From a virus: a stretch of DNA of 13,202 bases. The notes beneath the pieces were generated by a model. It had not been told where the DNA came from. It made no database searches and saw nothing but the letters and a program-made list of their open reading frames with translations. Of this stretch, positions 1 through 13,202 are shown in pieces; the stretch's first letter is position 1, and every line of letters begins with the position of its first letter. The stretch spans positions 1-13,202 of the IMG/VR virus record IMGVR_UViG_3300045988_115487; one strand, 5' to 3'. Made by a program: the position numbers and the translations under genes.

Positions 1-73
1 AATACTCAAGTCCGTGGTGGACGGACAAATTTCTTCCCCACACGGACACATGTGTATGTCTATGACGGACACG
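1..73. repeat. Left inverted terminal repeat (73 bp) of a linear, protein-primed genome
   Basis: Bases 1-73 (AATACTCAAGTCCGTGGTGGACGGACAAATTTCTTCCCCACACGGACACATGTGTATGTCTATGACGGACACG) are the perfect reverse complement of 13130-13202. Identity ends at base 74 (A, versus C in the partner). The repeat lies exactly at the window edge and starts with the reiterated 5'-AA. Confidence 0.97.
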
Positions 74-101
74 AAAAAAGACCCCGGTCAAAACCGAGGT
101 C
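74..101 (-). terminator. Rho-independent terminator ending the long minus-strand transcription unit
   Basis: Minus-strand RNA GACCUCGG-UUUUGA-CCGGGGUC forms an 8-bp stem with one G.U pair (101->94 with 87->80) and a 6-nt loop. UUUUUU follows at 79->74. The element starts 14 nt after the TAA stop at 116-118 and ends 1 nt from the ITR. Confidence 0.85.
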
Positions 102-115
102 AAACATTTGTTCGC

Positions 116-1441
116 TTACTGGAAAAGTGGGTCGAACACAAATTCACCAAAATCCACACATTCAATCTGGTTGATATCATATCTCAAATAGTTTCTTTTT
201 TCAGTATTAATTGCATGCATAATTAAATACACTTTTTTCTCTGAAATTTTGATAACCCCTTGTACAATCTTGAATAAATTCGCTTCCCCTGCTGTGCCAG
301 TTTCTTTTCCCCTAAGAATCACGCTACACGGTAAAGTACAGTCTGTTGCATTGAAATGGATTGCAGGACTGTCAATAGAACCCACTTCCAACGGAGTACC
401 GTCCAGTTTTAAGTTTGGAACATTTATCTCACTGAGTTTAAGCTCTAAACATCTCACTTTAGCAGTGCCATTAAAAATGGAATATCTGATTTTCGCACCG
501 CCTTTACCTGGAATATTGGTGGTCTTTGTAAAAGTTGTACCATACTCAATACTGTTAATCGGCTTAAAATAAAGTCCGTCAAACGCTCCAATCACCATAT
601 TTAGAATATTCTTATGACCCTGTTCGGACGGGTGTACACCGTCATTTGAAAAAGATGATTCATACAGCATACCCTGATACGCTGGTATAACACTAAATCC
701 CAATTGAGCGGCTGAATATATCCAGATTTTAATTGCTTTAATCACACTGATATACTTTGTTGATGTGTGAATCCCCTGTTGATGTCCTTCCCATGTCCAA
801 CCCATAGGACACACAACGACATTTTTACAGTTTTCAAAATTATTTGATATTGCGCTCTGGAAATCAATCATTCCCTGACTGATATCGTTCTCAGCAGCGT
901 TCCTGTCATTATAGCTTCCACCAATAATAATTTTGACAATATTTTTCTTGTCGTTCACCGTCATACTGCTAGCTAACTCGTTTAGCATATTGGTGAAAGT
1001 TTTTGTCCCGTCCGCTTTAAAACCGTAACCGCCAATAGCACACAGTTTTACAGTATATCCATTTTTTTCAAGAGCACTTTTAAGCATATACGCCCATGAA
1101 TATTCCTTATTAGATATATTTTCTCCAGCCGCATAACTGTCACCTAAAATAAGAATCGTAGGTTTATTAACTCTAGCCAGTGCTCCCTGTAATAAGGCAT
1201 CCGAAATTATTTCTGAAAGCTCACCACTCTCTTTCATTTCTTCTAGAATTCTTCTCACTTCACTATTAATTTCCAGTTTTGCAAAATAATCTGTTACAAA
1301 ATTTTTCAACTCTTCAAATCTATCCTGCAAATTAGAGAAATCGTCCTGCATCCTAAGCCATTCATCCGTCAACTTTTTTATTGTTTCTATAATCCATGTC
1401 AAGTTCATTTCATGGAAATTCGTATATGGAAATTTAAACAT
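116..1441 (-). CDS. Tail appendage / receptor-binding protein with a central SGNH/GDSL hydrolase (esterase) domain
   Basis: 441 aa with an ATG start preceded by AAGGAGTG. The N-terminal ~90 aa are helical and coiled-coil-like (FHEMNLTWIIETIKKLTDEW...). SGNH blocks are readable: block I ILGDSYAAG (Ser102), block II AIGGYG, block III GGSYND (Asn178) and block V DGVHPSEQGH (Asp267/His270). A beta-rich C-terminal domain of ~150 aa follows. It is the last gene of the structural block, the position of gp12 appendages in phi29-like phages. Confidence 0.7.
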   Translation of the reverse strand: MFKFPYTNFHEMNLTWIIETIKKLTDEWLRMQDDFSNLQDRFEELKNFVTDYFAKLEINSEVRRILEEMKESGELSEIISDALLQGALARVNKPTILILGDSYAAGENISNKEYSWAYMLKSALEKNGYTVKLCAIGGYGFKADGTKTFTNMLNELASSMTVNDKKNIVKIIIGGSYNDRNAAENDISQGMIDFQSAISNNFENCKNVVVCPMGWTWEGHQQGIHTSTKYISVIKAIKIWIYSAAQLGFSVIPAYQGMLYESSFSNDGVHPSEQGHKNILNMVIGAFDGLYFKPINSIEYGTTFTKTTNIPGKGGAKIRYSIFNGTAKVRCLELKLSEINVPNLKLDGTPLEVGSIDSPAIHFNATDCTLPCSVILRGKETGTAGEANLFKIVQGVIKISEKKVYLIMHAINTEKRNYLRYDINQIECVDFGEFVFDPLFQ

Positions 1442-1454
1442 TTTCTCACACTCC

Positions 1455-2096
1455 TTAATACACTAACAAGAAGAACTCTTCTTTAAACATTTCAGTAATT
1501 TTACTCAACGCACTCATAGATTTTTCAAGCTTGAAATCCAACACCTCAAGTTCCGACATTCCCGTAGACTTTGTTTCTTTTTCCGTTTCTGTCGTTTCAT
1601 TTTTAGAATTCTTTGCGTTGTTGTTTGTCTCATTGTAGCTTGCTTTTCCTCCATAAGTAATGGTTGTGCTTCCCCTATCCACAAGTGACGTTGAGTTAAA
1701 CCCTGCTACTTTTTCAGCTGTTGAATCCGACCCGCTCGTTCCACTATTACTTTCCTGTTTTAAATTTTCTTTATCTTCTGTTTCAGACTTTCCTTTTCTG
1801 TCTCTTGTAATCGTCTCTGTTTTTGCGCCCTCTGTTTTGGAAATGGCGAGTTCTATATCATAGATAATCGAGAACAGTCTTTCATTTACAGATGACCATG
1901 AATTTAGAGCTAGTGCCATTTCAGTAGGTGACGGTATCAAAACTTCTAATTCAGCACATTTTAACAGAACATAGTTTTGAATATTTTCCTTTCCAATATC
2001 ATTTACCATATTGACAGGTAGATGATTTATGAAATTATCTTTCAACAGATTCTCATTCCATGCTAGCAGACCCTGCAAGTAAAGTTCCCCCGGCAT
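1455..2096 (-). CDS. Putative lower collar / tail tube protein (assigned by position)
   Basis: The track ORF is 1455-2114. The ATG at 2096 (MPGELYLQ...) is preceded by GAGGGGGGTGA, whereas the ATG at 2114 has no RBS. The gene lies directly downstream of the connector gene, as gp11 does in phi29. It has a Ser/Thr/Glu/Lys-rich central low-complexity region. I recognised no motif, so the function is inferred from synteny only. Confidence 0.4.
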   Translation of the reverse strand: MPGELYLQGLLAWNENLLKDNFINHLPVNMVNDIGKENIQNYVLLKCAELEVLIPSPTEMALALNSWSSVNERLFSIIYDIELAISKTEGAKTETITRDRKGKSETEDKENLKQESNSGTSGSDSTAEKVAGFNSTSLVDRGSTTITYGGKASYNETNNNAKNSKNETTETEKETKSTGMSELEVLDFKLEKSMSALSKITEMFKEEFFLLVY

Positions 2097-2973
2097 TATT
2101 TTCACCCCCCTCATTATGACGCAATTTAACGTTTAGATTGAGATTAAACATTCTGTTTGTCTTTTCGACCCCTTCTTTCAATGTTTCAAGCCATAGTTCC
2201 ACTTTTGTGAAGCACTCAATATTGTTACTGTTTACCTCATCCACTATCATGCGTTCTTTCTTGTCACTTCTCGTGTTTGGTATGCCAACCTCATTGCAAA
2301 ACATTTCTTCCCATCGTCTTAACGTGTCCTGTAATTCAGGGGCGATAAAATTCTTTTTCAAGTCATTGTTAAAAAAATCTAACGGGATATTGCCATCTCC
2401 TATTTTCAGTTTTTCATCATAGAAAACTCCAAGTTCACCCCTCATTACATCGTCTAGAATTTTCTTCATTGATTCAGCCTGACTTTTTCCTCTCACAGCG
2501 AAAAGGAATGACAGCTTACTGTTCATGATATTCATTTCACATGATTCGGCGGTCATAGCCATATTATCTGCATAGTAATTTACGATATCGGAAATACCAC
2601 TATAATCCGGCTGTAATTTGATAAGAGAACACTGAGTGTTGATTTTAGGCTCTAAAATGCCAGTCAACAGAGGATTGACAATTATAGCGTGTGTGGGATT
2701 ATAATAGATGTTATATCCTCTCAATCCGCAATGCTGGCATATAACACCAAACTTATCTGTATTCACAACCGCCAGATATCCATTTAGAAACAGTGAATAC
2801 AGAAAGTAATTTTTATCCCACATTTCAGGCAACTCAAACTCAAATACAGACATAACTTTTTCAAGCAAATACTTTTTGAAAAACATAAACATTTGTGTGT
2901 TTTTCGTGTGAAGAGTTGACGGACTGTAAGACGAATTAAACAAGTTTACCATTTCGTAACTGTATGGCATCAT
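2053..2973 (-). CDS. Head-tail connector (portal / upper collar), phi29 gp10-like
   Basis: 306 aa, close to the ~309 aa of phi29 gp10. The C-terminal segment WEEMFCNEVGIPNTRSDKKERMIVDEVNSNN...NLNLNVKLRH parallels phi29 gp10 [30 protein letters not shown]...GLNVKVKFRY as I recall it. The ATG start is preceded by AAAGGGGTG. Confidence 0.85.
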   Translation of the reverse strand: MMPYSYEMVNLFNSSYSPSTLHTKNTQMFMFFKKYLLEKVMSVFEFELPEMWDKNYFLYSLFLNGYLAVVNTDKFGVICQHCGLRGYNIYYNPTHAIIVNPLLTGILEPKINTQCSLIKLQPDYSGISDIVNYYADNMAMTAESCEMNIMNSKLSFLFAVRGKSQAESMKKILDDVMRGELGVFYDEKLKIGDGNIPLDFFNNDLKKNFIAPELQDTLRRWEEMFCNEVGIPNTRSDKKERMIVDEVNSNNIECFTKVELWLETLKEGVEKTNRMFNLNLNVKLRHNEGGENNAGGTLLAGSASME

Positions 2974-2974
2974 A

Positions 2975-3622
2975 TCACCCCTTTATAAATACAGAACTCC
3001 AATATTGAGCATACTCATAACGTTCTGGCTGATTCAGGCTTGCCGGTCTCAGATAGTTATACATGAATGCATTGGTCAGAGTTTTCAAGTCATGGTTTCC
3101 AGTTGCCCATTCACGCCAAGTCATATTGTAACTAGATGTAGCATACCATTCCGGTTCAATACCTCTATTGGCATCTCCCACACTCTCTTGATATTCGGCG
3201 AACAACACAGCGCACTGTTTTCCACCATCGTACCAGTCGTCATGCTTGCCGTATAATAAATCAAGCACTGAGAGTAGTTTTGTTCCGGGTGTCCACTGTA
3301 CAAGTCCTCTACCGGGTCCATCTGCAGTGGTTCCACCGCCAACCTCCAATAGTCCGGGATTCATGGTACTTTCTTTCTCCATGTTTCCAAGTAACGCCAT
3401 ACGCGCAGTAGCACTCCAACCTCTCTCTTTGAAATAATTGTTAATGTTTGCGGCATTTTGCATCATCTTATCACGGGGAAAATATCCCTGTACTGTGTCA
3501 GTAACAAGAACGTTCCAATTTCCAGATGGCAGGGGAATTTCACCGCCACCACCACCGGAACCGCCTTTTTTAAGTCCTATCAATAATGCCGAATTATTAT
3601 AAGGATATCTCAACGAACTCAT
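2975..3622 (-). CDS. Tail-associated peptidoglycan hydrolase (phage tail lysozyme fold, like the N-terminal domain of phi29 gp13)
   Basis: 215 aa with an ATGA overlap onto the upstream gene. The motifs LLGNMEKESTMNPG and GRGLVQWTPG match the GNxxxES...GxGLxQWT signature of the phage tail lysozyme family. A GGSGGGGG linker follows a short N-terminal segment. Confidence 0.75.
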   Translation of the reverse strand: MSSLRYPYNNSALLIGLKKGGSGGGGGEIPLPSGNWNVLVTDTVQGYFPRDKMMQNAANINNYFKERGWSATARMALLGNMEKESTMNPGLLEVGGGTTADGPGRGLVQWTPGTKLLSVLDLLYGKHDDWYDGGKQCAVLFAEYQESVGDANRGIEPEWYATSSYNMTWREWATGNHDLKTLTNAFMYNYLRPASLNQPERYEYAQYWSSVFIKG

Positions 3623-5010
3623 GCGTAATAAAATCCTCCTTCCAAGTAATTTTTAATTGTGGTTATTTCTTCTGAATAGGCACCAATGATATTAACATTG
3701 CCATTTTCCACGATATAGAAACCGTTCCCCATTGATGAGGGCACACCATTCTTCATGTAAGGTCTACCGTTATCGGCGTTATCCTCATCTGTAATCTCAT
3801 AACAATCGGTTATAAGCTGAGTATTTACGAGCATTGATGCAACTGTGTCCGCCGATGAAAGTGCAGTAGCTTCTGCTTTAGTGAGTTGTAAACCTAAATT
3901 CAACAGTGATGAAGCAGATCCAATCCAGTTACCCGAAACAATACCGCCAACTGCCCCGACTGCTGACCCGATAGCACCCGGCAAGTCATTTTTAATATCA
4001 CCAATGGAAATAGAAAAACCAACTTTTCCGGGAACATTTGCTAACATGTATTTTTCAGTACCTTTTACGATGTATACATATGCGACCGCACCACCTGTTC
4101 TGCAATCTATATCACATTGTATTGTCAGCGTGTTCTCAATGATTTTCGAATAATTCAGTTCAATACTTCCAAATCCTTGTATGAACAACTTTCCCCGTCT
4201 ATACGGATAGCTGTTTAGGTATGAACCTCTCGTTCCTGCTTGCGGATGACTAGGAACATTTACAGTTGTTGATACACGATCAATAGCGTTTGATGATAGT
4301 CTAACTGCTATGGCGTCCACTTCCCACCACCCCAAACCGATTTTCGATTCTATGACTACTTCATCTTCCACAATATCGTAGGGAAACCATAATACAGATG
4401 TTATATATTGTGCAGGGTTGAAAACCATTTTTGCAATATCTTCACCTAAATCCGCTAAATCACCAGTGCCCATCCAAGTCATAGATGAAAATACACTTTC
4501 AGAAAATTTTACAAAACCTGCGTAATTAAATTTATAGTATTCACACATACCATTTTTACCTATAACCCCTACCACAAAAGTTCCTGATTTAATACTGTTA
4601 GCTTGTGGAAAAAGAGGTTGATTTGCCATAGTTGCGTTCCGTGTAGGGGCGCTGAATGACGGATATAAAGCGTCTGATATTCTACCATCAAAATTGGTAC
4701 TAGTTCTTATGATGTAATAACTCTTCTCGCCTATTTCATCTTTAAAACTTGCCATCACATCTACTTCCATATGGCACACCCACAACCCCGTACTGTATTC
4801 CCAATCATCCACGAAATAATATCGTTCAAATTCCGGAATATAGCAGTAATTGATTTTTTTCGGACTCCAGTCTTTCGCAAACTGAAATGTGATTGTAGGC
4901 TTTAAAATGGAGGAAGGGGCTCTTAAAGCCCCCTCATAATTTTTACCACCACTCGTGGGAATCCATGTAGAATTTTTCGCTTTACCGACATTAAAACATG
5001 TCACTATCAT
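3619..5010 (-). CDS. Tail knob / distal tube protein, phi29 gp9-like
   Basis: 463 aa with TAGGAGG 7 nt upstream of the ATG. The N-terminal region YCYIPEFERYYFVDDWEYSTGLWVCHMEVDVMASFKDEIGEKSYYIIRT parallels phi29 gp9 [55 protein letters not shown] as recalled. The gene lies between the capsid and connector genes. Confidence 0.7.
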   Translation of the reverse strand: MIVTCFNVGKAKNSTWIPTSGGKNYEGALRAPSSILKPTITFQFAKDWSPKKINYCYIPEFERYYFVDDWEYSTGLWVCHMEVDVMASFKDEIGEKSYYIIRTSTNFDGRISDALYPSFSAPTRNATMANQPLFPQANSIKSGTFVVGVIGKNGMCEYYKFNYAGFVKFSESVFSSMTWMGTGDLADLGEDIAKMVFNPAQYITSVLWFPYDIVEDEVVIESKIGLGWWEVDAIAVRLSSNAIDRVSTTVNVPSHPQAGTRGSYLNSYPYRRGKLFIQGFGSIELNYSKIIENTLTIQCDIDCRTGGAVAYVYIVKGTEKYMLANVPGKVGFSISIGDIKNDLPGAIGSAVGAVGGIVSGNWIGSASSLLNLGLQLTKAEATALSSADTVASMLVNTQLITDCYEITDEDNADNGRPYMKNGVPSSMGNGFYIVENGNVNIIGAYSEEITTIKNYLEGGFYYA

Positions 5011-5025
5011 ACATGTGCCTCCTAA

Positions 5026-6222
5026 CTAATCGAGTAAGAAAACTACACCGTTTTCCGTGAAGTCATTGTAATATCTGTCATTGAAATGCCAGAAAATGTT
5101 ACTGTATCCGCCTCTTGCATTAAACGGTGATGGCGCTGACCATTCACCATAAGTTGTGATACCGACAGCTTCCTCATCGAATAATACTCCAAAAATATTG
5201 GAAGTAACTTCCCCCTCAGTATCAGAAACGACATTTCCGTCGGAGTTCATGTACGATGCTTTTACGTTGATTCCATCTGAACTGTCAATATTCTGCCAAA
5301 ATCCCACTTTTTCATGGTCTGCCATTTTAAGATAGCTGTCGTTAAAGATAGAGGACATAACAGTAGTGTCAATATTGTTCAGTTCTTCTGAATACAGATA
5401 CAATTTCTGCTTGTTGTATGGCGTATGCCTAGAAATCTCTTTTCCCGTCACATTAATGTGGAATTTTTGTGTCCTCTCAGTCATCCAATCGGATACTGTC
5501 TTAATATACCCTGTTGCCCATTTCATAAACGGCACAAAATTCTCTGGTTGTTTTACCGTTTCAGTAGTCAGCGTGGTTCCTGCCACATCATTGTATTTTG
5601 CCACAAGATGGATAACGTTGTCGGGGTCACCTTTTACTTTACCACCGATGAAGTTCACAAGCGTCATTCTTGCTGTTGCTTCATGCGCCTGTTCGATCAG
5701 ATCAGATGCATTTGTCATAACCATAGTGACGAACCTTTGAAATTCCTGTTCATTCTGCAGAGCAACGTTTAACTGGTCTCTAAACAGTGTAATATGTCTC
5801 TGATATACGTTTTGTCCGTAAAAATTTGTTTGAAGCACTTTCGGAATGGCAACCACCTGGTCGTCCACACTCGCACCGTTTTTCAAATCATATCTGTCAT
5901 CTTTTTCCCAATCAGAATCTGCGATGTTAAGTTTTCGCACGTGGTTTCCGAATCTCATATTATCCTGATACAAACCCTTGAACTTTCTGGAATACGGTCT
6001 GATAGAAAAAATGGTTCTGCTGAGCACCTGAGAAATCGCACCTAATAGTGGGTCAATTCCTAATCCGAGTGCAGTGGTGGCAACCGAAGTGAAATCACTG
6101 GTCGCAATTGCACTAATTGTGTTTCTACCTGTTGCCTGATTTACAATTTCATTTAAAACAGCTGCTGAATTAAAATTGTCTACATTAGGAGAATCTAACG
6201 ATAATTTAGTAACTGAACCCAT
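5026..6222 (-). CDS. Major capsid protein, phi29 gp8-like core without the C-terminal Ig-like domain
   Basis: 398 aa with AAAGGAGTG upstream of the ATG, directly downstream of the scaffold-like gene. Segments such as SRKFKGLY and FQRFVTMVMTNASDLIEQAHEATARMTLV resemble the gp8 segments LKKFKKG and [28 protein letters not shown] as recalled. It is the largest non-tail structural ORF. Confidence 0.75.
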   Translation of the reverse strand: MGSVTKLSLDSPNVDNFNSAAVLNEIVNQATGRNTISAIATSDFTSVATTALGLGIDPLLGAISQVLSRTIFSIRPYSRKFKGLYQDNMRFGNHVRKLNIADSDWEKDDRYDLKNGASVDDQVVAIPKVLQTNFYGQNVYQRHITLFRDQLNVALQNEQEFQRFVTMVMTNASDLIEQAHEATARMTLVNFIGGKVKGDPDNVIHLVAKYNDVAGTTLTTETVKQPENFVPFMKWATGYIKTVSDWMTERTQKFHINVTGKEISRHTPYNKQKLYLYSEELNNIDTTVMSSIFNDSYLKMADHEKVGFWQNIDSSDGINVKASYMNSDGNVVSDTEGEVTSNIFGVLFDEEAVGITTYGEWSAPSPFNARGGYSNIFWHFNDRYYNDFTENGVVFLLD

Positions 6223-6226
6223 GATA

Positions 6227-6589
6227 TCACTCCTTTACTGGCGGGTTAATAATTGATGCTAACATATCTCCTGTTGTTGGTGGTTCTGGAATCTGAGAAT
6301 TACTCAGGTTTCCAACCTGAATCAGTCTTGTAATCTCATCTAACCGGTTGTCCAGAACGCCCATACGCTGATTAAACATATCCTGAGTATTATTCTGAAT
6401 CGGAACCTGTACCGGAACTGGTGCCGGTGCTGGTGCCTGTGCCGGTGTTGGTGTCTGAATCTGAGCCGGTGCAGGTGCTGGCATCGTAGTGACCTGATAA
6501 TTCTGTGATGCCACTACTCCTGCAAGTTTGATAATATCATCTTTTGTGAATCCTGCACCAGACAGTGCAATGATATCTTCGATTTTCAT
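6227..6589 (-). CDS. Putative scaffolding protein (gp7 position) with a Pro/Ala-rich linker
   Basis: 120 aa with an ATG start, immediately upstream of the capsid gene. It has a helical N-terminus (IEDIIALSGAGFTKDDIIKLAG), a PAPAPAQIQTPTPAQAPAPAPVPVQVP linker and a helical C-terminus. The call rests on position and composition only. Confidence 0.5.
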   Translation of the reverse strand: MKIEDIIALSGAGFTKDDIIKLAGVVASQNYQVTTMPAPAPAQIQTPTPAQAPAPAPVPVQVPIQNNTQDMFNQRMGVLDNRLDEITRLIQVGNLSNSQIPEPPTTGDMLASIINPPVKE

Positions 6590-6595
6590 GTGTTA

Positions 6596-6898
6596 TCATT
6601 CCTTTCTTGTTAAATATTTTTTATTACAAAAACCTGCATAAATCTTTCCGCTGTCTGAGTATTCGCAAAGATACCATTCCATAGTAGCATCTGTGAACCC
6701 GTAACAAAAAACAGTACGTCCTTTTTGCATCTCTACAATGATATTTGCGTTTGTATCTGGCTTATCACGCAACAACAGAGGGGAACTCTTTGTGCTTATC
6801 TTGTATTCACCATATACGTCACAGTCTGGTATAATGTCAATCATTCCGTACTGTTCTTCAATATCAGGGTCTAGTAGAATTTTTGCGCCTAATGGCAT
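6596..6898 (-). CDS. Stand-alone bacterial SH3 (SH3b)-like domain protein, a possible cell-wall-binding module
   Basis: The track ORF starts at a GTG at 6907. The ATG at 6898 has AAGGAG 8 nt upstream. The C-terminal ~60 aa (LLLRDKPDTNANIIVEMQKGRTVFCYGF...WYLCEYSDSGKIYAGFCNKKYL) fit the SH3b pattern L.(V/L)R..P......I..(L/M).KG..V......W.......G..G(W/F)...KYL. No catalytic motif is visible. Confidence 0.5.
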   Translation of the reverse strand: MPLGAKILLDPDIEEQYGMIDIIPDCDVYGEYKISTKSSPLLLRDKPDTNANIIVEMQKGRTVFCYGFTDATMEWYLCEYSDSGKIYAGFCNKKYLTRKE

Positions 6899-6903
6899 CT
6901 GTA

Positions 6904-7098
6904 TCACTCCTTCACGTCCAGTTTATCGGCAAGTTTCTGAATTGCCATTGTATTGTTGTTCAGAACCTCTGTGAGGTTGTGTATCTCTTCTTTGTGGTTT
7001 TCAGTCTCTCTGTACCATAAATAAAAGGTTACTGCAAGGCAAGCTACAGGTACACCCAAAGAGCTAAATAACTGACTTACTGCCTGAATCCATTCCAT
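6904..7098 (-). CDS. Holin, BhlA/UviB-like (one N-terminal TM helix plus a charged coiled C-terminus)
   Basis: The track ORF begins at a TTG at 7146. The ATG at 7098 (MEWIQAVSQLFSSLGVPVACLAVTFYLWYRETENHKEEIHNLTEVLNNNTMAIQKLADKLDVKE, 64 aa) has GGGGGGAG 7 nt upstream. Its size and layout, one TM followed by a helical charged tail, match the BhlA/UviB holin family of Firmicutes. Confidence 0.65.
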   Translation of the reverse strand: MEWIQAVSQLFSSLGVPVACLAVTFYLWYRETENHKEEIHNLTEVLNNNTMAIQKLADKLDVKE

Positions 7099-7198
7099 AT
7101 TGTCACTCCCCCCTCTTTTGAATTGAGGGGAAGTGCTGTGAGCCAACCAAACTCATGTACACGGGTTCCGCCCGTTGGTTTTGTACCACTCCCCCTAC
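7099..7198 (-). promoter_or_regulatory. Structured intergenic RNA: anti-anti-SD / anti-SD / SD arrangement upstream of the holin
   Basis: In minus-strand RNA, CACUUCCCCU (7135->7126) can pair with either of two partners. One is upstream AGGGGGAGUG (7196->7187), giving 10 bp with one G.U and enclosing the hairpin ACGGG-CGGAA-CCCGU (7175->7161) and an AACCA/UGGUU helix. The other is the downstream holin SD copy AGGGGGGAGUG (7114->7104), giving 10 bp with one bulged G and an 11-nt loop. No U-tract follows either helix. Confidence 0.5.
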
Positions 7199-7204
7199 AA
7201 CGAT

Positions 7205-7233
7205 AGAGTATCACATCTTGAAATAATTGTCAA
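7205..7233 (-). promoter_or_regulatory. Possible internal promoter (TTGACA-17-TACTCT with TG extension)
   Basis: On the minus strand, TTGACA (7233->7228) is followed by a 17-nt spacer ending in TGA, then TACTCT (7210->7205). The -35 is consensus and the -10 is weak, partly compensated by an extended TGn. The site lies at the 3' end of the ATPase gene, and its predicted start falls at the 5' edge of the structured element. Confidence 0.3.
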
Positions 7234-8266
7234 GTAAATATTTTGATTCAATATCAGAAAAACTTACTAACCCGTCAAGGTACATCCCCCAGACCCATAT
7301 GAACTTGTGTCGGAAAGCGATTAAATCTCTTGTTGATGTGGAATAAGTAATTTGTGGCGAACCCTGTAAGTGTTGTGTGATATACAATTTTTCCTTGCTT
7401 TTATGGGTGTATACGGTTATTTCACCGACTGTCACAATGGGGACGTACTCGTTTATTGGCTCTGATTTGATATCCGAATAATCCTCTGCATAAAAATCAT
7501 TCTGGATTGACATCTTGTAAAAATCGCTGTCTTTGCCAACCATTTTGTATACCGCTGTCTCAGATTTTGCCTGTGAAATCGGGGAGTTGGCAAGATTGAT
7601 AAGGATAATACCTCTATCAGGCAGATAGCTGAATTCCTGCCCTGTTTTATGCATATCAGTGACTTTACGGATTAATCCTAGTTTTGCAAATATATCACAG
7701 TTTGCGTTTTCGCTATTTGACGCACATATGAGCTGTAAAGGTTTTTCCCCCACAAGCTCTCGATTTCGGTTTATGGTTTCATATCCATTTAATAGCGCAA
7801 TCGTGGCGTTTTTCAACTGAGGCTCCGTCTTTTCTGGAATAAATTCATCGTAAAACATCAACTCAACGTCTGCCGCTCCGAAACCTCTTAAATTGGATAT
7901 CGTGCCAAGTGCCGCGGAATAGCCAAGTGGTTCCCCTGAGTTTGTATATTTTTTTGTTTTCTCATCAAATTTTGTATCATAAAAACCTGAGTACATTTTG
8001 TTAATTGGTGACGGTGTAATGCGTCTACCGCAGTCCGCGTTATATTGCTTAAATGGGTTGAATTGTGGTGTGCGAATCATATCTATTTGAGTTTGGCGAG
8101 TTCGTAGGTAAATAAATTTTTTATTATTTTCCACGGCGTGTTTCAAAATACCGTATGTTTTTCCTGTTCCTCTGCCACCCCATATAAAGATGAAAGGACA
8201 CCCTGTTTCCAAGATGCCCTTTATATTCACATAACCGTTACTGTCGTACATTTCAGGTTTTTTCAT
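7211..8266 (-). CDS. DNA packaging (encapsidation) ATPase, phi29 gp16-like
   Basis: 351 aa. Walker A is FIWGGRGTGKTYG and Walker B is ELMFYDEFIPEK (phi29 gp16: IVFDEFIREK). NRNRELVGEKPLQLICASNS parallels gp16 FRNRERVRCICLSNA. The ATG overlaps the upstream stop (ATGA). Confidence 0.9.
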   Translation of the reverse strand: MKKPEMYDSNGYVNIKGILETGCPFIFIWGGRGTGKTYGILKHAVENNKKFIYLRTRQTQIDMIRTPQFNPFKQYNADCGRRITPSPINKMYSGFYDTKFDEKTKKYTNSGEPLGYSAALGTISNLRGFGAADVELMFYDEFIPEKTEPQLKNATIALLNGYETINRNRELVGEKPLQLICASNSENANCDIFAKLGLIRKVTDMHKTGQEFSYLPDRGIILINLANSPISQAKSETAVYKMVGKDSDFYKMSIQNDFYAEDYSDIKSEPINEYVPIVTVGEITVYTHKSKEKLYITQHLQGSPQITYSTSTRDLIAFRHKFIWVWGMYLDGLVSFSDIESKYLLDNYFKM

Positions 8267-8619
8267 TTCACGTATCCTGCAACAAGGAAGTCCCTGCCAC
8301 GCTGTGATTTTTTGAAAAATACAGATACTTTTCTGAAGTCCTCACCGCATTTTTCTGCCATTGTGATGATACGCTCGAAAGACTGAATGAATGAGGCTGA
8401 GGTTGTCACGAAAACTGTATCCGTTTTCACTTCTTCGATTGACAGAGTTTTTACCACTTCACCCTTTGCGTTCACATCTTCCACAATAGCGTAGTAGCCA
8501 AACTCAACAGTTGTTCCGGCGGCGTTGGAAAGACGGATTCTGCCCTCATCTTCGAACATTTTGAACATTAATTCCATTGTGTACTCATTTTCCTTGATGT
8601 TTGTTTTGATAATTTTCAT
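8263..8619 (-). CDS. Putative single-stranded DNA-binding protein (remote resemblance to phi29 gp5)
   Basis: 118 aa with an ATG start. The C-terminal half TVFVTTSASFIQSFERIITMAEKCGEDFRKVSVFFKKSQRGRDFLVAGYVK has the same pattern as recalled phi29 p5 [61 protein letters not shown]. Size and context fit. The call is tentative without a profile search. Confidence 0.35.
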   Translation of the reverse strand: MKIIKTNIKENEYTMELMFKMFEDEGRIRLSNAAGTTVEFGYYAIVEDVNAKGEVVKTLSIEEVKTDTVFVTTSASFIQSFERIITMAEKCGEDFRKVSVFFKKSQRGRDFLVAGYVK

Positions 8620-8655
8620 GCTGTTTTCTCCTTTTTTCTTTTATGCTGTTTTTCT

Positions 8656-8871
8656 CTACTTTCCATAGTGTACAAATTCAGCCTCTGTCATGGATGCTTT
8701 CACAACCTCTGTATCCATAGACACTTTTACAGCTTTTACTCCTGTCTCAGCTTCATAAGATTTTTTAATCTTTGTAGCTGTTACATTTGCACCGTAGTAG
8801 GTTTTTTCAACAGTCTGTCCGTTTTCGTCTGTAATCTTTGCTGTTACTTTCTCAATGCTTCTTGTAATCAT
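8656..8871 (-). CDS. Putative histone-like dsDNA-binding protein (remote resemblance to phi29 p6)
   Basis: 71 aa and the first gene after a consensus promoter, with a GGAG RBS. GANVTATKIKKSYEAETGVKAVKVSMDTEVVKASMTEAEFVHYG parallels recalled phi29 p6 GNLTMEQAQWRMKRKYKGEPVQVVSVEPNTEVYELPVEKFLEVA. The call is tentative. Confidence 0.35.
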   Translation of the reverse strand: MITRSIEKVTAKITDENGQTVEKTYYGANVTATKIKKSYEAETGVKAVKVSMDTEVVKASMTEAEFVHYGK

Positions 8872-8916
8872 GTTTTCAACTCCTTTTTATTTTGTTTTGT
8901 TTTTTGTTACAAGTAT

Positions 8917-8945
8917 ATAATAGCATATGTGAACGTGTATGTCAA
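8917..8945 (-). promoter_or_regulatory. Sigma-A/sigma-70-type promoter (TTGACA-17-TATTAT) driving the p6-like gene and downstream genes
   Basis: On the minus strand, TTGACA (8945->8940) overlaps the polymerase TGA stop. A 17-nt spacer and TATTAT (8922->8917) follow. Downstream come an A-rich leader and the GGAG RBS of the 8871 ATG. Confidence 0.8.
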
Positions 8946-11053
8946 GCCTTTTCTTTAGTATTTTTTAAAAAATCGTGCCATAAGTCAACACTATTAAGAA
9001 CGTTTAAATATTCCAGTGTAAGCCCTACTGTATATTCAGAGGGTCGTATAACTACATTTCTGGTGATATACACGCTCTTGTCAGGGTTGGCAGGGTCTGG
9101 ACTATAATAGCCATAGTCTGTATCATTATAAACGGATTCCGTGCCACCTGCATCCCTGAATGTGGTTCCGATTTTCAGAGCTTCCAGACCACCCATTTTT
9201 TGCAGTTCCACCGCACCTTTTTCCTTTTCCACACCTGCTATTGTGATTTTGAGTCTACCGTTTTTTTCCTGCGCGTATTTTTTTGCACCTAGTGTAATAA
9301 ATCTATCCGACGTGCCCTCATATTCATACACGCCTAAATAATGTTCCACGCCTTTTGGGTCTGAAGCATGACCGCCATTATCTATGGAATCCTCCTTTAA
9401 TCGGATATTCAGTTCATCAAATTTATCCTTGATTTTGGGGTAACGCTCCGTCATCAATATTTTACATGAATCGGTATCACAATAAACAAAATCCTCGCCC
9501 GCGATGTTTACGGCAAGCTTGAGTCTCTGTCTGGCATGAGCAGTTACCCAACACCCCCACGCATACAGCATGAACGCTCTTTTGTTGTATTTCGCTAACT
9601 TTTCCGCTGTATCCCCATCCTCAACTGAAAACGGCTTGTCAGTGTTACTGTAAATAATATCAGGCTTGACCGGGTTTTGTGCCGCCATGCCATATAACGC
9701 ATTTATCAACTCTTTTGCTAGAGCGTATTCAAACTCCTTCCCTTTTACACCTTTTAAAGATGTTTTATCTGTAAACAAACTTTTCACTAGTTCCCTCAGA
9801 GATTCTGGTAGATAACCATATCCCGCTGTATAAAAATCTGTAAGTTCTGCCGTATCCCAGACGTATTCACCTTTTACAATCCCAAAATCGATATCATTTA
9901 GAGTGCATGAGTATTCACGTGCTGAGAGCAAGCGTCCGTTGTCCCAAACAGATTCGGTGCTTATGCAATACCCCTTATCTTTTGTCAGATAAGGCGCACC
10001 GTAATATACATCTTTTTGCCTGATATTTCGGAAATGGAACCGCCCCACGTATGCCTTGTGAAATTTTGTCCACCTTTCGAGGTCGTCCATACCGCAATTT
10101 CCCTGCCGCACAAATTTTGTCATTGGAAATTCGCAATTAAGCATAACGTCCGGATAAGAGCTTGCCCGGTCGAATGACGCAACGTTGTTGAGTATTTTTC
10201 CAACGTGATACCTGTTTGCATGCGTGTCACCACCCCTGAACTCTTCTCTGAGTAACGTGTATAAGCTCGTGTCACACATCATATTATGCAGTTTTTTATA
10301 ATTGTACTGTTTCATAGCTTGCCTTGCTTCTCTTCTGACATAGCCAGTAGAGGTTAATGGGAGAGTGTATAAGGTATCGTTATTATCCGTCAATCGTTTA
10401 TGCATTGCCTGTAATAATCCTATCACATCGTTACACCCGTATTCAATTTCCCTAGTTGATAATTCTGTCCACGGGTAACGTTGTTTATTATAATCAAAAT
10501 CTTTCAGCTTCTGATTCTCTACCCCACTATCACTCAAAAACTTGTCAAGACTTTTGTGCGTTTGCATATACGTACACCGGAACTCTAAATTCCCTTGCAT
10601 ATGATTTCCTGCTCTTATTCTGAGTATTTTACGAGGTTTGAGCGCAAACACCTCTTCTGGCTTTATTTCTATGTGTGAACGCAAAAACTGAAATTCGTAT
10701 GACAGGTTGTGCACAAAAGTCATTGTAATAAGGTGTTCATCTTCAATGCCTGTAAACAGTTCTTCGAGTTCGTCCCAATTTCTGCCGTACACGCATATTA
10801 TCTCATTATCGTCTAGTAATACGGCAAACTGCCATAAATACATAATGCTCTGTTCGATTCCAGAAAGTCGTGTAGTTTCAATGTCAAAAGCGCATATGCA
10901 ATTTCGGTACGACTGCTTTGCGAAGCGTTGTTTTCCTCTCATGTTAGGAGTTCTGTATATCTTCTGTATTCTATGTATCAATTCTTCTCTTTGCTTTTTG
11001 CCACTCCCTATACTGATTGAGTAATTCATCACCAGATTTTTCACCTCTATCAA
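8942..11053 (-). CDS. Family B DNA polymerase, protein-primed type (phi29 gp2-like)
   Basis: Readable motifs: Exo I CAFDIETT, Exo II HNLSYEFQFL, Exo III YGCNDVIGL, motif A FDRASSYPDVM (DxxSLYP-like), motif B KELINALYGMAAQ (Kx3NSxYG-like), motif C VYCDTDSCKI and KxY LGAKKYAQ. The start is uncertain. 11053 is a TTG, the ATG at 11029 has GAGGTG 12 nt upstream, and the ATG at 10942 would remove the overlap with the upstream gene but has no RBS. Confidence 0.95.
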   Translation of the reverse strand: MIEVKNLVMNYSISIGSGKKQREELIHRIQKIYRTPNMRGKQRFAKQSYRNCICAFDIETTRLSGIEQSIMYLWQFAVLLDDNEIICVYGRNWDELEELFTGIEDEHLITMTFVHNLSYEFQFLRSHIEIKPEEVFALKPRKILRIRAGNHMQGNLEFRCTYMQTHKSLDKFLSDSGVENQKLKDFDYNKQRYPWTELSTREIEYGCNDVIGLLQAMHKRLTDNNDTLYTLPLTSTGYVRREARQAMKQYNYKKLHNMMCDTSLYTLLREEFRGGDTHANRYHVGKILNNVASFDRASSYPDVMLNCEFPMTKFVRQGNCGMDDLERWTKFHKAYVGRFHFRNIRQKDVYYGAPYLTKDKGYCISTESVWDNGRLLSAREYSCTLNDIDFGIVKGEYVWDTAELTDFYTAGYGYLPESLRELVKSLFTDKTSLKGVKGKEFEYALAKELINALYGMAAQNPVKPDIIYSNTDKPFSVEDGDTAEKLAKYNKRAFMLYAWGCWVTAHARQRLKLAVNIAGEDFVYCDTDSCKILMTERYPKIKDKFDELNIRLKEDSIDNGGHASDPKGVEHYLGVYEYEGTSDRFITLGAKKYAQEKNGRLKITIAGVEKEKGAVELQKMGGLEALKIGTTFRDAGGTESVYNDTDYGYYSPDPANPDKSVYITRNVVIRPSEYTVGLTLEYLNVLNSVDLWHDFLKNTKEKA

Positions 11054-11429
11054 TAAACAACTCTAGCGCTTTTGTGCTGTCATATACTCTCCCAAGCGAA
11101 TAATCACGAACGGACTCCATGAACTCACCAAACTCATTGAGTTCTTTATAGGTTTTAAATTTGACCCCCAACTCTTCAAGTTTTGCCATTTTCCGTCTGG
11201 CAATTCTCCTTTGTCCCGAGACGCTGTATAAATCAGATTTCTCAGCGTGTTCTAAGGCAGACAATGCGCCCCGTCTCTGGCGGGCGGTCACTATCTGACT
11301 TTCAGGTGGTAGTTGTTGTAGCATATACTGTATATCATTCTTTGCACCCATTCCAAAATTTCGGTTTTGGGCTAAGACTTTTAGTTTTCTTATCACCTTT
11401 GTGCGCCGTTTTGCGTAATCTGTCGTCAT
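10971..11429 (-). CDS. Candidate terminal (priming) protein
   Basis: 152 aa, very basic, predicted helical, immediately upstream of and overlapping the protein-primed polymerase gene, as gene 3 precedes gene 2 in phi29. The N-terminus YAKRRTKVIRKLKVLAQ resembles phi29 TP EYARLVKNTKAKIARTKKKYG as recalled. The ATG forms an ATGA overlap with the upstream gene. The call rests mainly on synteny and composition. Confidence 0.45.
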   Translation of the reverse strand: MTTDYAKRRTKVIRKLKVLAQNRNFGMGAKNDIQYMLQQLPPESQIVTARQRRGALSALEHAEKSDLYSVSGQRRIARRKMAKLEELGVKFKTYKELNEFGEFMESVRDYSLGRVYDSTKALELFIDRGEKSGDELLNQYREWQKAKRRIDT

Positions 11430-11737
11430 GACACTATGTCCTCCATTTCGTGAATATGCCCCAAGTGAAACATTATCGCAGAACGGCTCAGTACTCGCGC
11501 TTTGCTCATATTACACTGTCTTGCCAATTTCTCCACTTCCCTGTATGTTCTGTCTGTGAGATATACGCTTGTGTTATATTTCGGCATAACTCGAGGGGAT
11601 ACTATAACCCGAGAACCTATGTCGCCGAACTCTGAAACAAAGTACACGGCGTGCTCCAAGTATTCACTCACGGTTGTCCCATATTCTTCTGACCAATTGT
11701 ATATTCTGATATCTAGACGGAGTGATAATTTTCTCAT
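11426..11737 (-). CDS. Tandem ribbon-helix-helix (RHH) DNA-binding protein, likely transcriptional regulator
   Basis: 103 aa containing two RHH-like units. Unit 1 is RKLSLRLDIRIYNWSEEYGTTVSEYLEHAVYF. Unit 2 is TSVYLTDRTYREVEKLARQCNMSKARVLSRSAIMF. Each reads as beta-strand, helix, G/N-x-S/T turn, helix. The ATG forms an ATGA overlap with the upstream gene. Confidence 0.5.
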   Translation of the reverse strand: MRKLSLRLDIRIYNWSEEYGTTVSEYLEHAVYFVSEFGDIGSRVIVSPRVMPKYNTSVYLTDRTYREVEKLARQCNMSKARVLSRSAIMFHLGHIHEMEDIVS

Positions 11738-11895
11738 TGTTTTCTATCCTTTCGATCCTGTTTTCTTCTACGTTTTTCTTTCCGTCTATTTTCTCTGCCC
11801 ATTTCGTCTGTTGTGCCTAAGATATAACCTGAAACAAACATTATCACAAAAGTTATTAACAGACACATTGTGTCACTCATAGTTGTTGCTATCAT
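11734..11895 (-). CDS. Small membrane protein with a polybasic C-terminal tail
   Basis: The track ORF starts at a GTG at 11934. The ATG at 11895 has GGAGGT 6 nt upstream and lies just after the upstream TAG stop. The product is 53 aa: MIATTMSDTMCLLITFVIMFVSGYILGTTDEMGRENRRKEKRRRKQDRKDRKQ, one TM segment plus an Arg/Lys-rich tail. Confidence 0.55.
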   Translation of the reverse strand: MIATTMSDTMCLLITFVIMFVSGYILGTTDEMGRENRRKEKRRRKQDRKDRKQ

Positions 11896-11899
11896 TTTG

Positions 11900-12466
11900 C
11901 TACCTCCAATAAATATTTCTCTCATCACTATCACTAATCAAGAACACGTCGTCATATTCGGTATACTTATTCACATTCCCATCATGAAACAAAATACTAA
12001 TTCCGTTCTCTTCCACTTTCAAAAACCTCACATTTCTTTTAAATCCGTTTATATAAACAGTTTCCCCAAAATACCCTTTTTTAATCTTTCGGAATAGCTC
12101 TTTCAAATCATGATTAAAATCAATAATTAAACTGTGAATACCCGTATATTTGATTTCAGCGGTTAGACCGTAAAACTCAATTCCAGTTTCTCCTAGAATA
12201 GCGTCCTCACCTGCAAATTCGACAAAACCATTGATTGTAACTAGAGTGTCTTTAACCACGATAGCTTTTTTAAGCTCTTCTAACTCATCAACAGGCTCAA
12301 TAGGTACTAGACATGTATCTTCAATTCTTGATATGTCATTAAATAATGAAGCGTTGTAGCGTATGGAACCGTCTGAAAACCTATGGAAACTATACTTGCC
12401 ATTTTTGTTCATATATTCATCAAGCTCCTGAGTGTGTCTTATTATTAATTCGATTGTATCTGCCAT
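11900..12466 (-). CDS. Hypothetical early protein
   Basis: 188 aa with an ATG start preceded by AAAGGAGC. It is in the same orientation and packing as its neighbours. I recognised no motif. Confidence 0.6.
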   Translation of the reverse strand: MADTIELIIRHTQELDEYMNKNGKYSFHRFSDGSIRYNASLFNDISRIEDTCLVPIEPVDELEELKKAIVVKDTLVTINGFVEFAGEDAILGETGIEFYGLTAEIKYTGIHSLIIDFNHDLKELFRKIKKGYFGETVYINGFKRNVRFLKVEENGISILFHDGNVNKYTEYDDVFLISDSDERNIYWR

Positions 12467-12516
12467 TTATGCTCCTTTTCTCCCCGTTGTGCCGGTAGGA
12501 CAGCTTATTTCAATGT

Positions 12517-12753
12517 TTATCTGATACTACAACAAATTTTTACTTCTGCATAAGGAACACTAGCCACGATTCTTTTGCTACGGTCATATATAAACAATTC
12601 TTCCATATCGTCATCAAAATTTAATTTTACTCTATCAAAGAAGAAAAATAAGCCGTTTATAAAAACGCCACAAGAAGCACCATGATAACCTGTTCTAAAA
12701 ACTTTATTAAGCTCTCTAATTTTTTTGATGAAATATTTTTTATTTTTTTTCAT
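12517..12753 (-). CDS. Hypothetical early protein (first ORF of the early transcript)
   Basis: The track ORF begins at a TTG at 12774. The ATG at 12753 (MKKNKKYF..., 78 aa) has AAAGGGGT 7 nt upstream. I recognised no motif. Confidence 0.5.
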   Translation of the reverse strand: MKKNKKYFIKKIRELNKVFRTGYHGASCGVFINGLFFFFDRVKLNFDDDMEELFIYDRSKRIVASVPYAEVKICCSIR

Positions 12754-12777
12754 TTTCGTACCCCTTTCACTCAATTT

Positions 12778-13045
12778 CAGGGAATAGTACTGAGTCCTCT
12801 CGCTCGCTTAATTCATCCGCTTCACAGCTAAATCAAGGATTAACGTCTAACTTGGCATTAGCTGGTGATTTTCTACTAAGTATCACCACTGTGCGTCATT
12901 GTCCTACTGCTCTCACTTTCTTTAAGTCCTTTACCGGGTACTTATTCTTCACACGCTCATTCCGATTTGTATCGGCATAACTGCCATGTTACTAACGTGT
13001 AGCCCTATGGGTTCCCGATCTTTCCTGCTTTCTATTCCCTGTTAC
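12778..13045 (-). ncRNA. Candidate structured non-coding RNA (pRNA-like candidate) or long structured 5' leader
   Basis: About 265 nt with no ORF of 60 aa or more and no RBS-preceded ORF on either strand, beginning a few nt downstream of a consensus promoter. The ends pair perfectly over 10 bp: CAGGGAAUAG (13041->13032) with CUAUUCCCUG (12787->12778). Internal helices include UGGUGAU/AUCACCA (12888->12882 with 12869->12863, 12-nt loop), CAGCUAA/UUAGCUG (12864->12858 with 12831->12825) and CCGAU-ACAA-AUCGG (12975->12962). No terminator is visible at the 3' side. Confidence 0.35.
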
Positions 13046-13051
13046 AATTAT

Positions 13052-13080
13052 ATAATACCACACTTATACCACAATGTCAA
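13052..13080 (-). promoter_or_regulatory. Early sigma-A/sigma-70-type promoter (TTGACA-17-TATTAT)
   Basis: On the minus strand, TTGACA (13080->13075) is followed by a 17-nt spacer and TATTAT (13057->13052). The site lies about 50 bp inside the right ITR and points into the genome. Confidence 0.8.
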
Positions 13081-13092
13081 TAGTTTTTTATA

Positions 13093-13121
13093 ATTATACC
13101 GCATTTTATTGTCTGTGTATA
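13093..13121 (-). promoter_or_regulatory. Possible second (tandem, upstream) early promoter (TATACA-17-TATAAT)
   Basis: On the minus strand, TATACA (13121->13116) is followed by a 17-nt spacer and a consensus TATAAT (13098->13093). The -35 matches 4 of 6 positions. The site lies 41 bp upstream of the stronger promoter. Confidence 0.35.
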
Positions 13122-13129
13122 GCGCACAG

Positions 13130-13202
13130 CGTGTCCGTCATAGACATACACATGTGTCCGTGTGGGGAAGAAATTTGTCCGTCCACCACGGACTTGAGTA
13201 TT
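13130..13202. repeat. Right inverted terminal repeat (73 bp)
   Basis: 13130-13202 is the exact reverse complement of 1-73 and ends exactly at the window edge. Confidence 0.97.

Follow-up and report, generated by a model that had tools for sequence, protein, structure and literature searches.

A complete 13.2-kb genome of a miniature phi29-like phage with a RAGATH-8 leader RNA ahead of its early genes

When the 13,202-nucleotide (nt) stretch of viral DNA in IMG/VR record IMGVR_UViG_3300045988_115487 (positions 1 to 13,202, the whole of which is called the window here) was analyzed, the data supported a complete linear double-stranded DNA genome of a phi29-like phage, minus 4 nt at each end. 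A protein-primed DNA polymerase, a gp16-type packaging ATPase, phi29-type virion genes and a structured RNA of the RAGATH-8 family were recognized, and the coordinates of all features are collected in Table 1. Taken as a whole, a complete miniaturized phi29-like podophage, with a Bacillota host and a strictly lytic lifestyle as its likeliest attributes, explains the observations best and is held with high confidence. The genome confirms that a full tailed-phage life cycle fits into 13.2 kb and 18 genes, and it leaves existing knowledge on this point unchanged. The only surprise in the genome, and the part worth pursuing, is the RAGATH-8 leader with its presence/absence variants.

The two ends of the window (positions 1-73 and 13130-13202) form an inverted terminal repeat (ITR) of 73 nt whose arms are 100 % complementary. 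A preliminary description, made from the sequence alone, had reported perfect 73-bp ITRs at the window ends and taken these for the ends of the genome. The complementarity was confirmed, but the genome ends lie further out, as the ENA contig L155 (13,210 bp) matches the whole window at 100 % identity and has four further bases, GTGG, beyond either end of it. This lengthens the ITR to at least 77 nt and the genome to about 13,210 bp, so that the window stops 4 nt short of the physical end on each side. At least 10 independent contig ends among relatives terminate exactly at GTGGAATACT. At the 3' end of contig L005 a TruSeq adapter tail (GCTCTTCCGATCT) is joined directly to GTGG, and a Nextera mosaic end is found 13-20 nt inside at the ends of L007, L010 and L016. 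Coinciding contig ends and adapter joins of this kind are the signature of a real DNA terminus. Many independent contigs of 12.9-13.3 kb were also bounded on both sides by homologous ITRs, and the lengths of 21 IMG/VR relatives with polymerases 89-93 % identical to that of the window range from 12.3 to 13.6 kb, apart from one cut contig of 10.6 kb. As many as 1,392 members were counted in protein clusters at 90 % identity, with no contig listed above about 14.3 kb. The earlier claim of an entire phi29-like linear genome is thus upheld by the coinciding ends, the adapter-fused terminus and the lack of any homologous contig listed above about 14.3 kb; a match that would make the window a fragment of a larger genome, which the preliminary description had named as grounds for withdrawing the claim, was not found among these clusters.

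One related contig has to be weighed against this completeness. L166, a contig of 13,155 bp from a metagenome-assembled genome (MAG) at NCBI (GCA_905216595.1, CAJMTI010000600.1), is permuted and has the right end joined to the left end at 7481-7900. It could be taken, together with the fact that fold-back misassembly can yield ITR-bearing contigs, to mean that the window is only part of a larger replicon or an integrated prophage and that its terminal repeats are an assembly artefact. However, about 17 and about 40 nt of the outer ITR are missing from the two copies at the L166 junction, and the ends of the contig repeat each other in inverted, palindromic form; L166 was rejected as evidence of circularity for these two reasons, and its permutation is likely a graph or assembly artefact arising from palindromes inside the ITR. 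The fragment explanation also has to face at least 10 independent contig ends that share one terminal nucleotide, one of them adapter-fused, more than 1,000 member sequences among which no homologous contig longer than about 14.3 kb is listed, and a full set of replication, packaging, virion and lysis genes. We consider it far-fetched.

Each ITR of this complete genome contains the heptamer ACGGACA three times (21-27, 42-48 and 65-71, with mirror sites within 13132-13182) at spacings of 21 and 23 nt, approximately two helical turns. Of the eight copies in the genome, six are inside the ITRs; 1.3 would be expected genome-wide. The repeats are kept in relatives. They are candidate binding sites for an origin protein. 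The exact termini, 5'-GTGGAATACT, and the 77-nt ITRs with three phased ACGGACA copies each would serve as replication origins and so provide a concrete origin for protein-primed initiation. It speaks against such a mechanism that the terminal GTGGAA shows no obvious terminal reiteration for sliding-back initiation.

The preliminary description had recognized a protein-primed type B polymerase by YCDTDS and other motifs, and this identification was borne out by the PF03175 match, by a match to the phi29 polymerase structure 1XHX (E-value 1e-5) and by the complete set of catalytic motifs: ExoI (FDIETT), ExoII (HNLSYEFQF), ExoIII (YGCNDV), motif A (DRASSYP), motif B (KELINALYG), motif C (YCDTDS, within VYCDTDSCK) and KxY (KKYA). 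All of them are conserved in 13 relatives. The distances from motif A to B (153 amino acids, aa) and from B to C (78 aa), compared with 134 and 73 in phi29, are long enough to accommodate TPR1 and TPR2, the insertions characteristic of protein-primed enzymes, and both are predicted from the spacing. At ExoII (polymerase residues 114-124), Glu stands in place of the catalytic Asp66 of phi29. The same Glu is present in all 13 relatives examined, among them cultured Amedibacillus, Clostridium and Salmonella phages.

Replication would be primed by a terminal protein, probably the 152-aa product of the gene that overlaps the start of the polymerase gene. A single-sequence search with this product gave close homologues only. 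In more distant relatives, the gene directly upstream of the polymerase gene belongs in every case to one family of 197-312 aa, which includes proteins of the cultured phages Amedibacillus AD70P2, Clostridium HM2 and Salmonella astrithr. A hidden Markov model (HMM) of this family matches residues 4-135 of the 152-aa protein (E-value 1e-7), by which the latter is a shortened member of the family. The best-conserved motif of the family, S-T-V-x-G, reads YSVSG here, and a profile search found 787 members. The AlphaFold2 model is all-helical with a predicted local distance difference test score (pLDDT) of 84.6. Two sets of results weigh against the assignment: the model had no PDB match in Foldseek, the phi29 terminal protein included, and no terminal-protein match was found by phmmer against PDB or in Pfam, PHROGs and NCBIfam. 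Because there is neither a sequence nor a fold match to the phi29 terminal protein, the label is drawn from position and conservation. When the model was compared with BFVD, matches were limited to uncharacterized proteins of similar metagenomic podophages. The neighbouring 103-aa open reading frame (ORF) was considered as the missing N-terminal part of a split terminal-protein gene and rejected, as HMM support was lacking. A conserved candidate terminal-protein family that is not recognizable by these searches would be common to all miniature phi29-like phages.

Among the virion and packaging genes, the gp16-type ATPase (PF05894, phrog_2150), the capsid gene (PF25622, hence phi29-type), the tail lysin (PF18013) and the gp10-type connector (PF05352), which carries the motif KKERMIVDEVNSN reported earlier as KKERMxxDEVxSN, were all recovered by family searches as the preliminary description had named them. 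The gp9-type knob that it had also named needed a different approach, as the 463-aa protein showed no family or PDB match by sequence. Seventy-nine homologues, all on contigs of at most 15 kb, were collected and used to build an AlphaFold2 model (mean pLDDT 84), of which residues 341-382, a Gly-rich hydrophobic loop, are the sole low-confidence stretch. The gp9 protein has a membrane-active loop at a comparable place. When the model was searched against PDB using Foldseek, the top seven matches were all phi29 gp9 (5FB5, 5FB4 and 5FEI; E-values 2e-11 to 4e-10, probability 1.0, template-modelling score 0.5-0.58, 11-13 % identity), and the next match had an E-value of 9e-3. These matches confirm the knob as gp9-type at the level of the modelled fold. 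The putative lower collar had no match in Pfam, PHROGs, NCBIfam or PDB.

The virion would accordingly follow the phi29 architecture, with a phi29-type capsid, gp10 connector, gp9 knob, tail lysozyme and an appendage with an SGNH esterase domain, and the gp16-type ATPase would package the DNA without a recognizable packaging RNA (pRNA). Regarding lysis, the holin called earlier is putative and is suggested only by one transmembrane segment and by gene position. The putative holin and the SH3-like protein are encoded between the ATPase and scaffold genes, and the only recognized peptidoglycan hydrolase is the tail lysozyme, located between knob and connector. As the SH3-like gene has no catalytic domain and the tail lysozyme is the only hydrolase, the endolysin arrangement is unusual or incomplete.

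Genomes of this kind are already known. Phi29-like phages are the smallest known tailed viruses according to a 2024 review and bioinformatic survey (PMC11476376), which tabulates many phi29-like genomes of 12.3-16 kb from human metagenomes ('Caudoviricetes sp. ct...' included) and lists Amedibacillus AD70P2 (12,320 bp, Guelinviridae) and Astrithrvirus (~11.7 kb). The novelty implied by the preliminary description was therefore overrated, since gut phi29-like phages of 12-15 kb had been catalogued before (PMC11476376); its statement that the genome is near the lower size limit of tailed phages is true, but this is not a record, as polymerase matches include relatives of 10.4-11.7 kb. The lineage itself occurs many times in IMG/VR, ENA and Logan assemblies and is very common in gut metagenomes, and cultured examples of the genome kind exist in Amedibacillus AD70P2 (12.3 kb) and Astrithrvirus (11.5 kb).

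The uncultivated gut phi29-like phages of 12-15 kb share size, ITRs, one-strand gene order and core genes with the window. IMG/VR relatives (e.g. 3300045988_111502) have 80-94 % nucleotide identity and 89-93 % polymerase protein identity to it, and most close relatives, unlike the window, are without the RAGATH-8 leader. Megablast against the GenBank phage collection gave no match, and GenBank fecal contigs (MT835998 and MT836263, among others) show 35-47 % identity in the polymerase and up to 59 % in the capsid protein. Among cultured phages, Amedibacillus AD70P2 and AD70P3 (Guelinviridae, 12.3 kb) arrange the genes for polymerase, ATPase, capsid protein, knob and connector as the window does. 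As in the window, a homologous gene precedes the polymerase, and almost all AD70P2 genes are on one strand. Protein identity in five core genes is 24-33 %; the relation to Guelinviridae is known from these pairwise identities and from those to Clostridium HM2 only. AD70P2 differs in its G+C content (26.7 % versus ~39 % here), in its tail and lysis genes and in having no RAGATH-8. Astrithrvirus-like phages of Gram-negative hosts (Salmonella astrithr, Pectobacterium DU_PP_III and Acinetobacter Phanie; 11.2-11.9 kb) resemble the window in the miniature genome, a 35 % identical polymerase, the Tyr-Glu variant of ExoII and the same gene upstream of the polymerase, but their capsid protein is ~25 % identical and the right arm is inverted in gene order.

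With phi29 itself (Salasmaviridae, 19.3 kb), the window shares the protein-primed polymerase with all catalytic motifs and spacings of TPR1/TPR2 size, the gp16 ATPase, gp10 connector, gp9 knob fold, phi29-type capsid protein, tail lysin and appendage. In contrast to phi29, which has a 6-nt ITR and divergent early and late units (PMC11476376), the ITR is 77 nt and transcription runs in a single direction, as in AD70P2. The genome is 6 kb smaller and contains no pRNA, which is peculiar to phi29 and related Bacillus phages (PMC11476376), and no recognizable homologues of gp3, gp4, gp5 and gp6. The similarity is at motif or fold level only, and the earlier view of a phage diverged from phi29 is in agreement with the polymerase E-value and the knob identity given above.

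The Rfam scan of the window (E ≤ 1) gave a single match, RAGATH-8, at 200.9 bits versus a gathering score of 86.7 and over the full length of the model (positions 1-276). The preliminary description had overlooked this RNA. Its 5' end is 11 nt past the -10 element of promoter P2, which is the predicted P2 transcription start, and its 3' end is ~25 nt before the first gene. RAGATH-8 is an orphan motif, and a literature search turned up no paper on its function. When the left (early-gene) ends of the relatives were aligned, RAGATH-8 was observed in the window and L019 only. L001, L004, L005, L012, L014 and L015 have the same ITR, both promoters and the first gene, with a leader of ~35 nt and no RAGATH-8. 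The alignment of L001 with the window covers 98 % of the genome at 93.7 % identity, and the uncovered 2 % corresponds to RAGATH-8. The L019 copy is only ~70 % identical to that of the window although the flanks are near-identical, and L166 contains just the first ~105 nt followed by unrelated sequence. A covariance model likewise detected RAGATH-8 in L019 alone among 26 relatives. As it is missing in near-isogenic relatives, RAGATH-8 is dispensable.

This distribution also bears on whether the 264-nt RNA could be the functional equivalent of the phi29 pRNA. In favour of this, it lies at the non-coding left end of a phage with a gp16-type ATPase and is strongly structured, its 5' and 3' ends pairing into a closing helix, and a copy in another miniature phage (L091, see below) is just upstream of the ATPase operon. 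The identity was nevertheless rejected, since L001 and at least five other relatives have only the ~35-nt leader where the RNA gene would lie, L019 is the sole carrier among the 26 relatives, and most copies are located in temperate phage contigs of 17-103 kb next to an integrase and a CI-like repressor. Furthermore, none of 75 additional RAGATH-8 loci encodes homologues of the proteins of this phage, and the Rfam scan of the window found no pRNA. In our judgement a pRNA role has next to no probability.

The occurrence of RAGATH-8 outside this lineage was followed with sequence patterns and a covariance model. A first pattern was too loose and gave mostly chance matches; the covariance model was then built. 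With it, more than 45 copies were found among IMG/VR loci, mostly in 17-103-kb contigs, where the RNA neighbours an XRE/CI-type repressor gene that is transcribed divergently, with a tyrosine integrase gene ~2.3 kb away. A stricter pattern found at least 119 IMG/VR contigs, including the 75 new ones referred to above. In bacterial assemblies with one genome per species, the same pattern matched 10 contigs, nine of which bear names of Lachnospiraceae taxa, while the tenth is a MAG labelled Bacteroides. The named contigs include Blautia wexlerae, Fusicatenibacter, Faecalicatena and Lachnospiraceae MAGs as well as the isolates Clostridium sp. OF03-18AA, Clostridium sp. OF09-36 and Anaerosacchariphilus hominis NSJ-68, genera that we take to belong to the Lachnospiraceae; the ten matches include scaffolds of 384 and 458 kb from isolates. 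Elsewhere, RAGATH-8 mostly adjoins the lysogeny switch in larger temperate phages or occurs in Lachnospiraceae-named contigs, whereas here it occupies the first transcribed position of a lytic-type phi29-like genome.

The structure was examined in 35 distinct sequences. In an alignment that was fitted to the model and so favours the structure somewhat, 96.3 % of the cells were paired, double changes were seen in 48 of 63 pairs and every helix was supported by covariation. None of 500 shuffles reached the observed value, and slid controls paired at 32-38 %. Of 33 distinct loci, approximately 25 have a sigma70 promoter close to consensus that ends 6-34 nt before the RNA. L091, an unrelated miniature phi29-like phage (12,752 bp; polymerase 42 % and capsid protein 59 % identical to those of the window), contains a diverged RAGATH-8 minus one hairpin (L091:2937-3179, plus strand) directly after the polymerase gene, heading the ATPase operon, which looks like an independent acquisition. 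As a common rule, then, RAGATH-8 would appear to be a dispensable, exchangeable module and the first element transcribed from a strong phage promoter. We tentatively suggest, as a possibility well short of an even chance, that it is a leader RNA located next to the promoter, spread horizontally among gut Bacillota phages and active early in infection. A put-like cis-acting RNA that modifies the host RNA polymerase, and so lets it read through terminators, would suit this location, and so would a first-expressed decoy or anti-defence RNA. The placement and the natural plus/minus variants narrow the role to an accessory, promoter-proximal one and link it to Lachnospiraceae phages. If the mobile-leader reading is true, the near-isogenic set of the window and L155 (present), L019 (~70 % variant), L166 (truncated) and L001 (absent) would be a minimal test system.

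In many temperate-phage copies (L040, L047, L051, L109 and others), an extra hairpin without a clear U-tract was observed after RAGATH-8. Compensatory changes in this hairpin are seen in GTCAGGAAGT/ACTTCCTGAC, GGGTCAGG/CCTGACCC and GTCAGGCAGT/ACTGCCTGAC. The window lacks it.

The host is most likely a member of the Bacillota. The closest cultured relatives by capsid protein infect Amedibacillus, GGAGG-type Shine-Dalgarno sites precede most genes, and the RAGATH-8 module points to the Lachnospiraceae as a possible host family. Two points weigh against this assignment. No link to a host by clustered regularly interspaced short palindromic repeats (CRISPR) spacer or by isolate was obtained, and phages of Clostridium, Amedibacillus and Salmonella all stand at much the same distance from the window in their polymerases (33-35 %), with 35 % to the Gram-negative-infecting Astrithrvirus versus 33-35 % to the Clostridium and Amedibacillus phages. 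The polymerase identities and the RAGATH-8 match in the MAG labelled Bacteroides would also suit a host among the Bacteroidota or Pseudomonadota, as is the case for the Astrithrvirus-like small phi29 relatives. However, capsid protein, knob and connector are nearer to the gut/Amedibacillus group than to Astrithrvirus, the strong GGAGG ribosome-binding sites are atypical for Bacteroidota, an SH3-like wall-binding protein is present with no spanin recognized, and the other nine of the ten RAGATH-8 genome matches are in Lachnospiraceae-named contigs. A Gram-negative host is therefore considered unlikely.

A strictly lytic lifestyle is most likely for the phage. No integrase, repressor, partition or toxin-antitoxin family was detected in Pfam, PHROGs, NCBIfam and other profile searches. 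Nine small ORFs are without assignable function, and it counts against strict lysis that they could hold a cryptic lysogeny or maintenance function. A complete phi29-like genome might accordingly persist as a linear plasmid-prophage or in a carrier state and would then resemble the ~30-kb Enterococcus elements EF62phi/pBE32_2. Besides the nine ORFs, one of which has sub-threshold ribbon-helix-helix hints, the extreme prevalence of the lineage in gut metagenomes and the sharing of the RAGATH-8 module with temperate phages are in line with such persistence. It is very unlikely in our view, given that none of the families named above was detected, that cultured relatives of similar size were isolated as plaque-forming phages and that 13 kb offers little coding room.

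All long ORFs are on the minus strand, and the GC skew is negative in every 1-kb window of the sequence. An independent gene call on the identical contig L155 found 18 co-directional genes and one spurious end ORF, in accordance with the 18 one-strand genes counted earlier. A tRNA scan of the window found none. The promoters P1 and P2 are in tandem and adjoin the left ITR, and a consensus scan gave P3 equal strength. Host RNA polymerase with sigma70 would initiate at P1/P2 beside the left ITR and transcribe the 264-nt RAGATH-8 leader and then the early genes through the polymerase; P3 would boost expression of the packaging ATPase, lysis and structural genes, and the single predicted terminator would close the transcription unit at the right end.

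Table 1 Features of the 13,202-nt window, in order of position (strand: -, minus;., not stranded)
Feature	Position	Strand	Basis or remark
ITR, downstream genome end	1..73	.	73-nt perfect complement; true repeat 4 nt (GTGG) longer than window
Intrinsic terminator after last gene (predicted)	80..101	-	9-bp GC-rich stem then TTTTTT
Tail appendage/tail spike, SGNH/GDSL esterase domain	116..1441	-	profile searches
Putative lower collar, 213 aa	1455..2096	-	synteny only
gp10-type upper collar/connector	2053..2973	-	PF05352, E 1e-19; phrog_2038, E 1e-32
Tail-associated lysozyme	2975..3622	-	PF18013, E 6e-25
gp9-type tail knob, 463 aa	3619..5010	-	AlphaFold2 and Foldseek
phi29-type major capsid protein	5026..6222	-	PF25622 (Phi29_MCP), E 2e-17
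Putative scaffold protein, 120 aa	6227..6589	-	synteny: upstream of capsid gene
SH3-like cell-wall-binding protein, 100 aa, no catalytic domain	6596..6898	-	phrog_14030 C-terminus, E 1.6e-6; weak SH3_3 match
Putative holin, 64 aa, one transmembrane segment	6904..7098	-	suggested by segment and gene position
gp16-type DNA packaging ATPase, Walker A GGRGTGKT	7211..8266	-	PF05894 (Podovirus_Gp16), E 1e-11; phrog_2150, E 9e-33
ORF, 118 aa, no assigned function	8263..8619	-	gene call
ORF, 71 aa, no assigned function	8656..8871	-	gene call
Sigma70-like promoter P3, TTGACA-17-TATTAT with TG	8917..8945	-	consensus scan; just past polymerase gene
Protein-primed B-family DNA polymerase	8942..11032	-	PF03175; phrog_1907, E 2e-56
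Candidate terminal protein, 152 aa, all-helical	10971..11429	-	position directly upstream of polymerase; family HMM, E 1e-7
Early ORF, 103 aa	11426..11737	-	ribbon-helix-helix hints, all sub-threshold
Early ORF, 53 aa, one hydrophobic segment and very basic tail	11734..11895	-	
Early ORF, 188 aa, no assigned function	11900..12466	-	gene call
Early ORF1, 78 aa, no assigned function	12517..12753	-	gene call
RAGATH-8 structured RNA (Rfam RF02687), 264 nt, 5' leader of early operon	12778..13041	-	Rfam scan
Sigma70-like promoter P2, TTGACA-17-TGgTATTAT, 11/12 matches	13052..13080	-	conserved in relatives
Sigma70-like promoter P1, TATACA-17-TATAAT	13093..13121	-	consensus scan; conserved in relatives
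ITR, upstream genome end, early-gene side	13130..13202	.	perfect complement of 1-73

The intergenic stretch ahead of the 188-aa gene (12467-12516, minus strand) contains CCTACCGGCACAACGGGGAGAAA, which is kept in all close relatives despite the diverged preceding ORF. A similar sequence, CCTATCGGGAGAAAGG, follows the RAGATH-8 RNA of L091.

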